From the NCBI RefSeq assembly GCF_050320075.1, contig NZ_CP190018.1: a DNA stretch of 64,000 nucleotides; one strand, written 5' to 3'. The stretch is from Escherichia coli (GTDB taxonomy: Bacteria; Pseudomonadota; Gammaproteobacteria; Enterobacterales; Enterobacteriaceae). Below the pieces are notes generated by a model. That model saw nothing but the letters and a program-made list of their open reading frames with translations, ran no database searches and was not told the origin of the DNA. Positions 240 through 57,612 of this stretch are shown piece by piece (positions within the stretch are counted from its first letter, which is position 1; every line of letters starts with the position of its first letter). The translations under genes and the position numbers were made by a program.

Positions 240-1199
240 ATGAAGCTGGAAAACAAATTACCCGTTCTGGACCTTATTTCTGCTGAAATGAAGACCGTTG
301 TGAATACTCTTCAGCCGGATTTACCGCCCTGGCCCGCAACGGGAACGATTGCTGAGCAACGACAGTATTACACGCTTGAGCGCCGATTCTGGAATGCGGG
401 CGCTCCAGAAATGGCAACCAGAGCTTACATGGTTCCAACAAAATATGGGCAGGTGGAAACACGTCTCTTTTGTCCGCAGCCAGATAGCCCAGCGACGCTA
501 TTTTATTTGCATGGAGGCGGTTTTATTCTCGGCAATCTCGATACCCACGATCGCATCATGCGCCTGCTGGCAAGCTACAGCCAATGTACGGTGATTGGTA
601 TTGATTACACCCTTTCACCTGAAGCGCGTTTTCCGCAAGCGATAGAGGAAATTGTGGCTGCTTGTTGTTATTTCCACCAGCAGGCGGAGGATTATCAAAT
701 CAATATGTCCCGCATTGGCTTTGCCGGTGATTCCGCAGGTGCCATGCTGGCGCTCGCCAGTGCGTTGTGGTTGCGTGATAAACAGATCGATTGCGGTAAA
801 GTTGCGGGCGTTTTGCTGTGGTATGGGCTTTACGGATTACGGGATTCCGTGACTCGTCGTCTGTTGGGCGGTGTCTGGGATGGCTTAACGCAACAGGATT
901 TACAGATGTATGAAGAGGCGTATTTAAGCAACGACGCGGACCGCGAGTCGCCGTATTACTGCCTGTTTAATAATGATCTCACTCGCGAAGTTCCGCCCTG
1001 TTTTATTGCCGGGGCGGAGTTCGATCCGCTGCTGGATGACAGCCGTCTGCTTTACCAGACGTTAGCGGCGCATCAGCAGCCCTGTGAGTTCAAACTCTAC
1101 CCAGGCACGCTGCACGCCTTTTTGCATTATTCACGGATGATGAAAACCGCCGACGAGGCTCTTCGCGACGGCGCTCAGTTCTTTACCGCTCAGCTTTAG
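240..1199 (+). CDS. aes: Acetyl esterase (alpha/beta hydrolase)
   Basis: 319-aa ORF with HGGGF oxyanion motif and GDSAG catalytic serine motif; 3' end overlaps hemH convergently by 4 bp. Confidence 0.95.
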
Positions 1200-2158
1200 C
1201 GATACGCGGCAACAAGATTAGCCATCATCTCGATATGTTCCGGAGTGGCATTAAGCGCCGGAATATATTCATATTTTTTCCCGCCCGCACCGAGGAAGAC
1301 CTCACGGTTTTGCTCGGCAATCTCTTCCAGCGTCTCCAGACAATCCGCAGCAAAGCCCGGGCACATCACCTGAATATGACCTACGCCTTTTTCTCCGAGC
1401 ATTTTCAGCGTTTCGTCGGTATAAGGCATCAGCCAGGGTTCCCGCCCAAAGCGCGACTGAAAGGTCATCATCACTTTTTCCGGTGCCATCCCCAGTGCGG
1501 AAGCCAGTTCGCGAGTCGTTGTGCGGCAACGTTGCGGATAATCATCGCCTTCATCTGCATAACGCTGGGGAATGCCATGATAAGAGAGCAGCAGCAGATC
1601 CGGTTCGCCATGTTTAGCGAAAGAAGCACGTACGCTGTTCGCCAGTGCATTAATGTAATCGTGGTTATCGGCGTAATCACGAATAAACGATATCCCCGGA
1701 ATGCTACGTTTGCGCGCCAGAATGCGTGCCAGTTCATCCCATACCGCACCGACCGTTGAACAGGAGTATTGCGGATAAAGCGGCAGTACCACAATATGAT
1801 CTACATGCTCTGCCAGGAGTTCATCTACGGCGCTTTCCAGTGATGGCGAGCCGTAGCTCATTCCCAGCGCTACGGGCGTCTCCGGTAAACGTTGTGCCAG
1901 CGCCTGCTGTTGCTGGCGGCTGTAAACCATCAGCGGCGAGCCACCCTCCATCCAGACAGAGGCATACAGCTTCGCCACACGCGGCGAGCGCAGTGGCAAA
2001 ATCACGCCGCGCAGCAATGGCCACCATAACAACCGTGAGGTATCAACCACGCGTCTGTCGCTTAAAAATTGTTTCAGATAGCGTTTTACCGCTTCAGGTG
2101 TGGGGGCATCGGGCGTACCCAGGTTTGCTAGCAGGATACCGGTTTTAGTCTGACGCAT
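1196..2158 (-). CDS. hemH: Ferrochelatase
   Basis: 320-aa ORF recognised as HemH; position between aes and adk matches K-12. Confidence 0.95.
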
Positions 2159-6085: not shown

Positions 6086-8017
6086 TCAAATGGGGCGGAT
6101 ACTTTCTTCATCCAGCTCCGCATCGAAGAACCGACGCAGGGTCTGAATATTATTATCCGCAATAATGGACTCGCGCGCCTGCGCAAGTTTTTCTTCGTAT
6201 ATCGCCTGACGCCATTCCAGCGGCGTACGCACCGCGGGATTATCATCTTCAACGATAGTCAGTTCAACCGTTGAACCTTTTAACATGCTCAACGCTTCAG
6301 CCAGTTTTTGCTGTGCGCCGCGGTTGTTCAAATGCCGCTGAGAGGAGCGCAAATGCAGACATACTGCGTTGTCGCTCTCCTCTTTCCAGGCATTTAACGC
6401 CACCTGTTCGACCAGTTTTGGTAGCGAAAGTTGACTCACCTGAGCCGCCCACGGGTCGCGCTCAATGGCTTCTGCCGCCAGCTTCGCCGCCAGTTCCGGC
6501 GTTTTTTCATGTTCCAGCGCTTTTTTCAGCGCCTTCGGCGTAGCGACCACTTCTTTTTGCTGCATCACTGGAGTGGTGGCCTTCCAGCGATACGCTTCTT
6601 TTTTGGCTGGCGCTTTTTCCAGCGCCGATGGCACCGGACGCGCCTGAACGCGATCGGTGACCGAAGCCAGTCTTTCCAGCGCAGCGTTATTCACCGGCCG
6701 CGCGCGGGTAGCGGCTGCCGGTTCACTCTTTTTTGCTTTGGTTGCTCCCTGCACGCGCTGCAACTGCTGGCGCGCCGCCAGCACCTGGCTGGTGGTTTCC
6801 GGGAGCGGTACAGTCGGTGCCTGCTGCGGCGCTGATTGCGGTTGCGGCGGCACCTGGGTTGGCGTCATTACTGCCGTTGGCGCGACGGGCGCAAAGGACT
6901 GGCGTGGCACTTCTGGCTCAGGCAGCGGCATACGCGGATGGAACGCCAGCGCGCGCAACAGCGTCATCTCAACGCCCATACGGCGGTCTGGCGCATACGG
7001 TAATTCTTTGCGACCAATCAACAGCGTCTGATAGTAAAGCTGAATATCCGTCGGCGGTATGGTGCGCGCCAGTTCACGCATCCGCAGCTCGATAGCGGCC
7101 ATGTCGTTGCCAAGTGCAGCAGGCGAAAGTTGTACCATCGCAATACGATGCAACAGGCCGAGCATTTCCACCAGCAACGCTTCCCACTCGATACCACGGG
7201 CAGCGGCTTCATTAATCAGTGCCATTACGCGCTCGCCGTTGGCCTCGATCATCGCTTCAACCAGCGACAGCGCCTGATCGTCGTCAAGCGTACCCAGCAT
7301 CGCACTGACCGCCTGAGTTGAAACCTGGCCGTCACCGCTGGCAATCGCCTGGTCGGTCAGACTTAAGGCATCTCGCAGGCTGCCTTCAGCGGCGCGTGCC
7401 AGCAATTGCAGCGCCCGCGGCTCGTGAGCGATATGTTCTTCGTTGAGGATGTGCTCAAGCTGATGGCGAATTTGCTCGACATCCAGCGCCTTGAGATGAA
7501 ATTGCAGACAACGTGACAAAATCGTCACCGGCAATTTCTGCGGATCGGTCGTCGCCAGCAGAAACTTAACGTGCTCTGGCGGCTCTTCAAGGGTTTTTAA
7601 CAGTGCGTTAAAGCTGTGGCGCGACAGCATATGCACTTCGTCGATCAGATAAACTTTGAAACGACCACGCGCCGGAGCGTACTGGACGTTATCCAGCAGG
7701 TCGCGAGTGTCTTCAACTTTAGTGCGCGAGGCGGCATCGATTTCAATCAGATCGACAAAGCGCCCCTGCTCGATTTCACGACAGTTATCGCACACGCCGC
7801 ACGGCGTCGCGGTAATGCCGGTTTCGCAGTTTAGCCCCTTCGCCAGCAGTCGGGCGATAGAGGTTTTTCCGACGCCACGGGTGCCGGAAAAAAGATAAGC
7901 ATGATGAATACGCCCTAACGACAAGCCGTTCGCCAGTGCGGTCAGCACATGTTCCTGGCCGACGACGTCAGCAAAGGTTTGTGGGCGCCATTTTCGGGCT
8001 AAGACCTGATAACTCAT
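6086..8017 (-). CDS. dnaX: DNA polymerase III tau subunit (gamma produced by -1 frameshift)
   Basis: 643-aa ORF with Walker A GTRGVGKTS; internal slippery heptamer present. Confidence 0.97.
   Translation of the reverse strand: MSYQVLARKWRPQTFADVVGQEHVLTALANGLSLGRIHHAYLFSGTRGVGKTSIARLLAKGLNCETGITATPCGVCDNCREIEQGRFVDLIEIDAASRTKVEDTRDLLDNVQYAPARGRFKVYLIDEVHMLSRHSFNALLKTLEEPPEHVKFLLATTDPQKLPVTILSRCLQFHLKALDVEQIRHQLEHILNEEHIAHEPRALQLLARAAEGSLRDALSLTDQAIASGDGQVSTQAVSAMLGTLDDDQALSLVEAMIEANGERVMALINEAAARGIEWEALLVEMLGLLHRIAMVQLSPAALGNDMAAIELRMRELARTIPPTDIQLYYQTLLIGRKELPYAPDRRMGVEMTLLRALAFHPRMPLPEPEVPRQSFAPVAPTAVMTPTQVPPQPQSAPQQAPTVPLPETTSQVLAARQQLQRVQGATKAKKSEPAAATRARPVNNAALERLASVTDRVQARPVPSALEKAPAKKEAYRWKATTPVMQQKEVVATPKALKKALEHEKTPELAAKLAAEAIERDPWAAQVSQLSLPKLVEQVALNAWKEESDNAVCLHLRSSQRHLNNRGAQQKLAEALSMLKGSTVELTIVEDDNPAVRTPLEWRQAIYEEKLAQARESIIADNNIQTLRRFFDAELDEESIRPI
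6723..6734 (-). other. dnaX: dnaX programmed -1 ribosomal frameshift site (A AAA AAG plus -1 frame UGA stop)
   Basis: Plus strand ctttttt at 6728..6734 is the reverse complement of AAAAAAG at about codon 430; -1 frame gives GAG UGA (stop at 6723..6725); GC-rich stem follows. Confidence 0.85.
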
Positions 8018-10000: not shown

Positions 10001-10040
10001 AAAAAATAAAGGGCGGCATCACTGTCGCCCTTTATTGTCC
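10001..10040. terminator. Shared hairpin between convergent ybaM and mscK (bidirectional terminator candidate)
   Basis: AAAGGGCG...CGCCCTTT stem flanked by A-run and T-run in the 41-bp convergent spacer. Confidence 0.5.
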
Positions 10041-22872: not shown

Positions 22873-22913
22873 ATTGTAGGGCTGACGGCACGCCGCACAG
22901 CCCATCACGCTAC

Positions 22914-23567: not shown

Positions 23568-23957
23568 ATGCTGGTTTCTTGCGCAATGCGGCTTCACTCG
23601 GGCGTTTTTCCAGATTATGCTGAAAAATTACCTCAGGAAGAAAAGATGGAAAAAGAAGATTCATTTCCCCAACGCGTCTGGCAAATCGTCGCCGCTATTC
23701 CCGAAGGCTATGTCACCACTTACGGTGATGTGGCGAAACTGGCAGGATCGCCCCGCGCCGCGCGCCAGGTGGGCGGTGTGTTAAAGCGTCTCCCCGAAGG
23801 CAGCACCTTACCCTGGCACCGGGTGGTTAATCGCCACGGCACAATTTCGCTAACCGGACCGGATTTACAGCGTCAACGACAGGCATTACTGGCAGAAGGT
23901 GTGATGGTATCGGGAAGCGGGCAAATCGACTTGCAGCGTTATCGCTGGAACTACTAA
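23568..23957 (+). CDS. atl: Alkyltransferase-like DNA damage-binding protein (Atl/YbaZ)
   Basis: ORF track 136 aa; likely 129-aa product from MLVSCAMRL; ends ...VMVSGSGQIDLQRYRWNY. Confidence 0.85.
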   Translation: MLVSCAMRLHSGVFPDYAEKLPQEEKMEKEDSFPQRVWQIVAAIPEGYVTTYGDVAKLAGSPRAARQVGGVLKRLPEGSTLPWHRVVNRHGTISLTGPDLQRQRQALLAEGVMVSGSGQIDLQRYRWNY

Positions 23958-23987
23958 CCCTCTCCGGGCGGAGAGGGTTAACTGCGC

Positions 23988-27521: not shown

Positions 27522-31068
<3,547 letters not shown>

Positions 31069-31667: not shown

Positions 31668-32378
31668 AAATAAATATCCTCCGGCATAGCCGGAGGTTTT
31701 TCAAATGCGCCTGTAAGGCTCTGTTACCAGCCGCGCCCTAACAGGCGCATACGATCTGACATTTGCATTCAACTTCGTTACTTACGGCCCGTAAACGGGC
31801 TGCCCGGATATGGAATCGATAACTGCTCCCCCATTTTATCCTCTTCAAGCTGGTGCTTTATGTAGTCCTGTATCTTCGCCGTGTTCTTACCCACCGTATC
31901 GACATAGTACCCTCGGCACCAGAACTCCCTGTTTCTGTATTTGAATTTCAAATCCCCAAACTGCTCGTAAAGCATCAGACTGCTTTTCCCTTTCAGATAT
32001 CCCATAAAGCCGGATACGCTCATTTTGGGTGGGATTTCCACAAGCATATGGATATGATCTGCGCGGCACTCTGCTTCCAGAATCCGTACGCTTTTCCACT
32101 CACACAGCTTTCTCAAAATACTGCCTATCGCCCTACGCTTCTCTCCGTAAAACGCCAGTCTTCGGTATTTCGGCGCAAAAACTATGTGATATTTACAGTT
32201 CCAGCGGGTGTGCGCTAAGCTCTTTTCGTCCCCCATTGGGACCCCCTTTTGATTTCTTGTTTGACACTTGCAGTTGCCAGACCGCAAGGTGTTTTAACAA
32301 ATCAAAAGGGGTTTGAATAACTGGCTCAAAGCTGAAAGCTTTCCGGAACCCCCAGCCTAGCTGGGGGTTTTCTGTGCA
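31668..32378 (-). mobile_element. IS200 insertion sequence (IS200/IS605 family), boundaries approximate to about 10 bp
   Basis: About 710 bp extra in the decR-cof spacer; encodes an IS200-type TnpA; subterminal hairpins CCCCCAGC-CTA-GCTGGGGG (32349..32367) and CCTCCGGC-ATA-GCCGGAGG (31678..31696); no terminal inverted repeats, as expected for this family. Confidence 0.85.
31778..32236 (-). CDS. tnpA: IS200 transposase TnpA (HUH/Y1 single-strand transposase)
   Basis: 152-aa product MGDEKSLAHTRWNCKYHIVFAPKYRR...HIHMLVEIPPK...YVDTVG; HUH motif HIH and catalytic Tyr region present. Confidence 0.92.
   Translation of the reverse strand: MGDEKSLAHTRWNCKYHIVFAPKYRRLAFYGEKRRAIGSILRKLCEWKSVRILEAECRADHIHMLVEIPPKMSVSGFMGYLKGKSSLMLYEQFGDLKFKYRNREFWCRGYYVDTVGKNTAKIQDYIKHQLEEDKMGEQLSIPYPGSPFTGRK

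Positions 32379-50009: not shown

Positions 50010-52946
<2,937 letters not shown>

Positions 52947-56147: not shown

Positions 56148-57612
<1,465 letters not shown>

Follow-up and report, generated by a model that had tools for sequence, protein, structure and literature searches.

The seven short gene overlaps found in the 64-kb stretch of E. coli DNA analyzed here (referred to as the window) are best read, with a probability of roughly 85%, as ordinary and already annotated overlaps of core E. coli genes that fall into three mechanistic classes and are better kept apart than explained by a single mechanism. In class A, which comprises ybaB/recR, cyoC/cyoD, xseB/ispA, mdlA/mdlB, and, at the margin, cyoB/cyoC, a ribosome ending the upstream gene would stop on or beside the downstream start, where it would either re-initiate or open structure at the downstream start site. 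In class B, represented by panE/yajL, the PanE reading frame continues for 12 codons past the yajL start to reach a stop supplied by the conserved Gly-Ser-Glu codons of yajL, and yajL would be started independently at an AAGGAG site inside panE. In class C, represented by aes/hemH, two convergent genes simply abut without a spacer, with only their stop codons interlocking in a YTAR pattern; hemH read-through is ended by Rho some 315 nt into aes, and aes probably ends at a hairpin and T-run inside hemH. We draw this reading from overlap coordinates, conservation patterns, published ribosome densities, a published Rho termination region, and the published listing of hemH-aes among overlapping transcripts. 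Nothing in it is new in kind: all of it fits published general rules, which already cover enriched spacings, phase bias, the link to complex subunits, and overlapping convergent transcripts. The overlaps are textbook material for a well-annotated model genome and matter little, and an earlier note made from the sequence of this DNA was right to call them core features of low interest.

The window is a base-for-base match (100% identity) to positions 3735582-3799581 of E. coli YZLc1-3 (NZ_CP123240.1). It contains the core region gsk-aes-hemH ... cyoABCDE ... dxs-yajO in reversed orientation relative to K-12, and most of its first 25 kb was present in 5,418 of 5,426 complete E. coli genomes. Overlap coordinates were taken from the RefSeq (PGAP) annotation of NZ_CP123240.1, and the bases of each junction were also read directly (Table 1). 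All six overlaps named in the earlier note were recovered, each at exactly the coordinates given there, together with a seventh, cyoC/cyoD, that was absent from its list. Alignment with the K-12 annotation, which the note had proposed as a check, was carried out against the curated RefSeq record of MG1655 and returned the same seven overlaps with identical lengths.

Table 1. Overlaps, flanking genes, and initiation or termination features in the window
Feature	Position	Strand	Description
aes/hemH, convergent overlap	1196-1199		4 bp, TTAG; aes stop TAG at 1197-1199 (+); 1196-1198 read on the complementary strand gives the hemH stop TAA; two bases common to the aes and hemH stops
aes (acetyl esterase)	240-1199	+	319 aa; C-terminal end variable
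hemH (ferrochelatase)	1196-2158	-	320 aa
Candidate one-way intrinsic terminator for aes	1232-1279	+	Inside hemH coding sequence
Published Rho termination region, hemH read-through	~860-900	-	Antisense to aes
ybaB stop / recR start	5704	-	1 bp, TGATG; recR without Shine-Dalgarno site
mdlA stop / mdlB start	29296-29303	-	8 bp, ATGCGTAG
mdlB Shine-Dalgarno site	29310-29316	-	GAGGAGG, strong; inside mdlA coding sequence
cyoB stop / cyoC start	52003-52013	+	11 bp, ATGGCAACTGA
cyoC stop / cyoD start	52617	+	1 bp, TAATG
yajL Shine-Dalgarno site	57009-57014	+	AAGGAG; Lys-Glu in the panE frame
panE 3' tail / yajL 5' end	57022-57059	+	38 bp
xseB stop / ispA start	59562	+	1 bp, TAATG; ispA nearly without Shine-Dalgarno site

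The overlaps had been presented as a case of tight gene packing. However, the window is not more tightly packed than expected. Among its 42 same-strand neighbor pairs, six overlap, each consisting of adjacent genes on the same strand, and four have a stop-to-start spacing within -8 to +6 nt. Genome-wide, 707 of 2,987 E. coli pairs (24%) fall in this band (Huber et al. 2023, PMC10666635). The four pairs observed compare with ~9.9 expected in the window (binomial P for four or fewer, 0.017), and the window is therefore, if anything, below average in tight packing. The commonest overlap type, the 4-bp ATGA (-4), has no case here, and one of the eight convergent pairs overlaps. Genome compaction was considered as a driver and rejected: the window holds many spacers of 100-500 bp, and the literature also argues against it.

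All in-frame ATG, GTG, and TTG codons near each downstream start were examined for their pairing energy to the 3' end of 16S rRNA. By far the best Shine-Dalgarno pairing belonged to the annotated starts of mdlB (-11.8 kcal/mol), yajL (-8.7), cyoD (-8.4), and cyoC (-8.0); the values for recR (-1.5 kcal/mol) and ispA (-3.2 kcal/mol) correspond to essentially no Shine-Dalgarno site. An annotation artifact, in which the downstream genes would start further downstream and the overlaps would be absent, is extremely unlikely and already largely refuted by these comparisons. In-frame alternatives do exist for recR (ATG, 10 codons downstream), cyoC (TTG, 5 codons), cyoD (ATG, 18 codons), mdlB (ATG, 30 codons), and ispA (GTG, 31 codons), but none of them has a Shine-Dalgarno site, and use of the nearest ones would remove 10-35 conserved residues. 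For yajL, no alternative downstream start was found within 40 codons. The one close alternative, the TTG at cyoC codon 6, is CTG, CTA, CTC, or TTA in most other species and is thus not a start codon there; the annotated cyoC ATG is kept in 36 of 36 species. Annotated ATGs are likewise kept across genera, with N-termini conserved from residue 1, and the curated K-12 annotation agrees with them. The aes/hemH overlap consists of stop codons only and involves no annotation choice. Since the annotated starts are the best supported and the alternatives fail, the overlaps are real; alternative start codons, which the earlier note had named as the finding that would overturn them, do not remove them.

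Conservation across species was assessed from a YajL scan with one genome per species, which yielded 80 Enterobacteriaceae loci, each with flanks of up to 10 kb per side, in which orthologous stops and starts were placed by tblastn. The claim that the overlaps are conserved held for panE/yajL, cyoB/cyoC, cyoC/cyoD, ybaB/recR, and mdlA/mdlB but failed for aes/hemH, where the spacing runs from -26 to +2, and for xseB/ispA. The cyoB/cyoC spacing was -11 in 35 of 36 species, the remaining genome having reached -1 through a 1-nt insertion, and cyoC/cyoD was -1 in all 42 species in which it was scored. At xseB/ispA, the -1 arrangement was seen in only 7 of 75 species (Escherichia, Trabulsiella, and Yokenella), with a spacing of 0 in 52 and of +1 to +4 in most others. 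Sampling was thin for the other two same-strand pairs: ybaB/recR is -1 in Salmonella, E. marmotae, and Citrobacter (three in all), and mdlA/mdlB is -8 in Citrobacter as well as in E. coli. Because the MdlB homolog search returned almost exclusively E. coli and Citrobacter clusters, conservation of this last overlap rests on one other genus.

Published work provides the spacing rules against which these junctions can be placed. The enriched spacings are -4, -1, and -8 nt (PMC12548453), and the efficiency of coupling drops with longer overlap, with none seen at -25 nt (work summarized by Brown and Wade 2025, PMC12548453). Among native E. coli -4 pairs, coupling was found in four of the five tested (PMC6728339). 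Subunits of multi-protein complexes are overrepresented 4.5-fold among pairs spaced at -8 to +10, and long overlaps are several-fold commoner in "phase 1" (-8, -11, -14, and so on) (PMC10666635), a bias that follows from the inability of point mutations to shorten such overlaps to -4 or -1. The -8, -11, and -38 overlaps of the window are all phase 1. By spacing, ybaB/recR, cyoC/cyoD, and xseB/ispA (-1) and mdlA/mdlB (-8) lie inside the coupling range; relative to the -8 to +6 band, cyoB/cyoC (-11) is marginal and panE/yajL (-38) lies outside. Translational coupling, which the earlier note had proposed for the overlaps as a group, is accordingly uneven in its appeal: judged by spacing, the -1 and -8 pairs are plausible candidates and cyoB/cyoC is perhaps another, but coupling is unlikely at panE/yajL, which is beyond the coupling range, and has no bearing on aes/hemH. 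The two cyo overlaps join subunits of cytochrome bo3, and mdlA/mdlB, annotated as the SmdA/SmdB pair, joins the two halves of the MdlAB transporter. The pairs ybaB/recR, xseB/ispA, and panE/yajL are not known to encode complex partners.

Ribosome profiling, the other check proposed for coupled translation, was taken from published K-12 data (Burkhardt et al. 2017, PMC5318159, supplementary file 1), with translation efficiency (TE) defined as ribosome density divided by mRNA abundance. Among the cyo genes, TE was 0.35 for cyoB (ribosome density, 633; mRNA, 1829), 0.48 for cyoC (793; 1658), and 0.70 for cyoD (1269; 1811). The corresponding values were 1.20 for xseB (220; 182) and 0.55 for ispA (92; 168), and 2.18 for ybaB (1686; 772) and 0.127 for recR (86; 673) (PMC5318159). 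No values are given in these tables for panE, yajL, mdlA, or mdlB, probably because coverage was too low; where values are given, mRNA levels are similar within pairs. Ribosome densities give ratios rather than dependence, and similar or different values neither prove nor exclude coupling; read as ratios, they show that output is comparable among the cyo subunits (cyoB:C:D, ~1:1.25:2), that ispA TE is 2.2-fold below that of xseB, and that recR TE is 17-fold below that of ybaB at similar mRNA. The check thus came out in favor of similar output for the cyo subunits and against equal output at ybaB/recR, where a 17-fold drop across a 1-bp overlap means that the overlap does not equalize output.

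We therefore consider it unlikely that all six same-strand overlaps enforce tight, near-equal coupled translation, as the blanket wording of the earlier note implied. The similar cyo densities speak for such an arrangement, as do the enrichment of short overlaps for complex subunits (PMC10666635) and the coupling of most tested -4 pairs (PMC6728339). The TE differences at recR and ispA speak against it, and so do the -38 spacing of panE/yajL and the drift of xseB/ispA from -1 to +4 among species, along with the three pairs that are not known complex partners. What we favor is coupling by different routes at different class A junctions, each route being one that we infer from the features of the downstream start. 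The low output of recR fits inefficient re-initiation at a start without a Shine-Dalgarno site, and recR and ispA would be the genes most likely to rely on low-efficiency re-initiation, since neither has a usable site. For mdlB and cyoD, whose strong Shine-Dalgarno sites are buried in predicted structure, an unfolding route would apply. Predicted opening energies of the initiation regions, computed for the small set of 58 genes in the window, were highest for mdlB (10.6 kcal/mol) and cyoD (10.5 kcal/mol), against a median of 5.5 kcal/mol, as would be predicted if their start sites had to be opened by upstream ribosomes.

These junctions share several features with described termination-reinitiation pairs (Huber et al. 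2019, 2023; Brown and Wade 2025). The TGATG or TAATG (-1) layout is found at ybaB/recR, cyoC/cyoD, and xseB/ispA, and mdlA/mdlB has the ATGNNTAG (-8) layout. The Shine-Dalgarno sites of mdlB, cyoC, and cyoD lie inside the upstream gene, and the cyo and mdl pairs encode complex subunits. In contrast to the described pairs, the window lacks a -4 (ATGA) pair, recR and ispA lack a Shine-Dalgarno site, and ribosome densities here are up to 20-fold apart (ybaB/recR). The ybaB/recR junction, in particular, illustrates through published profiling how large a TE difference a 1-bp overlap can accompany.

The panE/yajL junction offers a clean example of a family-wide fixed overlap in which selection acts on a single frame. 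An overlap of this type was present in all 80 species, with a spacing of -38 in 67 and of -41 in 12; in the 80th (locus L037), panE is frameshifted and the junction is of the -41 type. An apparent 102-bp gap between panE and yajL at that locus proved to result from a frameshift or an assembly error within the panE gene. Column-by-column entropy over the 80 loci was 0.16, 0.13, and 0.68 bits at yajL codon positions 1, 2, and 3 within the overlap, where the third positions of yajL are the first positions of panE. Just upstream of the yajL ATG, variation shifts to the third position of panE (0.76 versus 0.33 and 0.32). Because variation inside the overlap follows the yajL frame, selection there acts on YajL only. 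The last 12 residues of PanE change freely (for example, G/D, P/S, and I/V/S/N). The overlap therefore has the form of a phase 1 read-on, with a length of 38 = 3 × 12 + 2 and a PanE tail free of protein-level constraint. The panE stop is built from the Gly12-Ser13 codons of yajL (GGT AGT, read as ..T AG.). When the yajL Gly codon is GGG, GGC, or GGA, the panE stop shifts by 3 nt to a TGA drawn from the Ser-Glu codons, which gives the -41 form.

Initiation signals at yajL are equally constant. Its AAGGAG site, 8 nt before the ATG, does not vary at positions -13 to -9 and hardly varies at -8 in the 80 species, and the initiation region is predicted to be accessible (4.2 kcal/mol, 23rd percentile of the 58 genes). 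No promoter-like site was found inside panE on the + strand, which places yajL on the panE transcript. These observations suggest that yajL is co-transcribed with panE but initiated independently, the overlap being a frozen PanE read-on tail and not a coupling device; ribosomes translating panE may have some effect on yajL initiation. Long phase 1 overlaps of this sort are known (Fukuda 2003; discussion in Huber 2023), and both panE/yajL (-38/-41) and cyoB/cyoC (-11) resemble them. The likeness at panE/yajL extends to the unconstrained PanE tail and to the way in which a synonymous GGT-to-GGG change in yajL moves the panE stop by 3 nt. However, such overlaps are usually described as transient, whereas panE/yajL is fixed in every one of the 80 sampled Enterobacteriaceae species, a consequence of the stop's position in the conserved PGSEE motif of yajL.

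Since no spacer separates aes from hemH, each transcript must end inside the other gene. A terminator scan around position 1196 found none at the junction, its hits lying only inside aes and far upstream of the aes stop, and the 101-nt junction folded no better than shuffled sequence on either strand (z-scores, +1.89 and +0.85). On the aes strand, TCATATTTTTT, with its T6 run at 1274-1279, comes after a hairpin whose stem of 12 bp spans 1232-1269. This hairpin and T-run lie 33-80 nt past the aes stop, and the fold of a 136-nt stretch gave a z-score of -3.16. Both elements recur in K-12, E. marmotae, Salmonella, and Citrobacter, but the same bases specify conserved residues of HemH, and it may be the protein alone that preserves them. 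No Term-seq 3' end is listed for aes in Adams et al. 2021 (PMC7815308). The hairpin is therefore treated here as a candidate, probably the aes terminator. Past the hemH stop, no folding signal was detected on the hemH strand (z = 0.18); G-rich sequence extends over the first 250 nt and gives way to a stretch rich in C and poor in G. Published mapping places a Rho termination region on the strand opposite aes, 315 nt beyond the hemH stop, at K-12 499332(+) (Adams et al. 2021, PMC7815308), with a Rho score of 4.07 and p = 6e-10 (supplementary file 2, PMC7815308). In addition, hemH-aes is among 165 convergent overlapping-transcript pairs (excludons) of E. coli MG1655 and was seen in at least half of 58 RNA-seq sets (PMC12288877). 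Gene geometry, this published list, and the Rho region on the hemH strand inside aes all identify the pair as one with convergent transcript overlap.

The earlier note had suggested shared termination at this junction. Bidirectional terminators are indeed frequent between convergent genes, and aes/hemH resembles pairs served by bidirectional intrinsic terminators in having a palindromic hairpin close by, 36-73 nt from the junction. A single terminator common to both genes is nevertheless very unlikely. The hairpin sits within the coding sequence of hemH, ahead of its stop codon, and so cannot end hemH transcripts; its U-run is on one side, with none on the hemH strand, and hemH read-through ends in a Rho-dependent manner inside aes. 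With no spacer, no junction hairpin, and a junction fold no better than shuffled, the idea was dropped in favor of two transcripts that end inside each other by different means. It is also improbable that the overlap is a selected regulatory excludon, with transcription of one gene repressing the other. Like the convergent excludons cataloged with ExcludonFinder (NAR 2025), where hemH-aes is itself named, the pair lacks a spacer, its transcripts necessarily overlap, and antisense RNA runs into the neighbor. However, the length of the aes/hemH overlap is not conserved: the junction is fluid, taking values of -26, -4, and +2 both between close relatives and inside E. coli, and aes and hemH are neighbors only in Escherichia, Salmonella, and Citrobacter. 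Moreover, aes can be interrupted by an insertion sequence in natural strains.

The aes/hemH overlap is better regarded as a by-product of stop-codon placement, and it differs between E. coli lineages. A 4-bp convergent overlap needs YTAR on the + strand, which is TTAG in E. coli and TTAA in Salmonella. A 401-bp query spanning the junction matched 5,424 of the 5,426 E. coli genomes. About 95% of E. coli genomes, like Salmonella, have the 4-bp overlap; the other ~5%, like E. marmotae, have the 26-bp form, and Citrobacter has a 2-bp gap. In the minority allele (for example, in strain AREA_486), 13 bp are missing just before the aes stop, giving an Aes of 322 aa (…FFSDRLQQD) and the 26-bp overlap. 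A query with this allele matched ~230-275 genomes (4-5%) at ≥90% identity and ~5,146 genomes at 80-90% identity, the latter with a match 13 bp longer.

Adaptive readings of the panE/yajL and aes/hemH junctions are distinctly improbable, whether panE/yajL is taken as a selected gate linking pantothenate synthesis to protein-deglycase output or the 4- and 26-bp aes/hemH alleles are taken to differ in antisense interference with hemH, a gene of heme synthesis. If the former were true, ribosomes finishing panE might pass over the yajL start and gate it. Beyond a conserved …DGAxFFxxQL motif, Aes proteins have C-termini of varying length. The aes genes of [Enterobacter] lignolyticus, Edwardsiella, and Proteus are located away from hemH, and these more distant genera are therefore uninformative on the junction. 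In Proteus, aes overlaps a different convergent gene through a 4-bp TTAA of the same type.

Inside the convergent gene yajL, the thiI strand carries a terminator-like hairpin (see the table below) whose position matches that of a Rho termination region reported at K-12 position 443228 (+), antisense to yajL (PMC7815308). Taken together, the hairpin and the Rho region indicate that the thiI transcript, too, ends within its convergent neighbour. Two other convergent pairs in the window, pdeB/ybaA (gap of 41 bp, 22873-22913) and atl(ybaZ)/ybaY (gap of 30 bp, 23958-23987), appear in the list of convergent excludons (convergent genes with overlapping transcripts) of E. coli MG1655 (PMC12288877). 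The start position of atl/ybaZ is uncertain: automated annotation places it 78 bp downstream of the K-12 annotated start, giving a gene of 312 bp versus 390 bp.

Features of the window discussed in this section
Feature	Position	Strand	Remark
dnaX programmed -1 frameshift element	6689-6753	-	annotated; tau and gamma subunits
atl/ybaZ	23646-23957	+	312 bp in automated annotation
IS200/IS605-family transposase gene	31778-32236	-	between decR and cof
Terminator-like hairpin in yajL	57424-57442	-	~225 nt beyond the stop codon of thiI
Gene annotated "pentapeptide repeat-containing protein"	63608-64000	+	follows yajO; continues beyond the window end

An aes allele shorter by 13 bp, encoding an Aes protein of 322 aa and overlapping hemH by 26 bp (loci L003, 1384-1409, and L088, 6944-6969), is common to ∼5% of E. 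coli genomes and to E. marmotae, a distribution that hints at either an old polymorphism or exchange between lineages. An IS3-family element interrupts aes in the E. coli strain OkiPb01713 (233-1446 of locus L004); the gene is therefore dispensable in nature. The aes homologue of Proteus hauseri overlaps another convergent gene, of the NUDIX family, by 4 bp (TTAA; locus L092, 6966-6969), which is the same stop-on-stop pattern as at aes/hemH but of independent origin.

Three spacers are much shorter in the window than in K-12: hemH-adk (2159-2289; 131 versus 235 bp), rsmS-mscK (10003-10040; 38 versus 211 bp), and dxs-yajO (62349-62402; 54 versus 179 bp). Presence or absence of putative repetitive extragenic elements likely accounts for these differences. 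Comparison of the annotations also revealed that the decR-cof spacer, which carries the transposase gene in the window, measures only 152 bp in K-12; the transposase region is therefore a strain-specific insertion of ∼0.7 kb. At the window end, the pentapeptide repeat-containing protein gene (full length in the source record, 1,572 bp) lies where pgpA is found in K-12, which suggests that this gene, too, may be a strain-specific insert.

The dnaX frameshift element represents a further kind of overlapping reading frame, absent from the list in the earlier note. Just beyond the window, thiL shares 23 bp with pgpA in K-12 (590-612 of the K-12 locus, L005), one more long phase 1 overlap adjoining this region.
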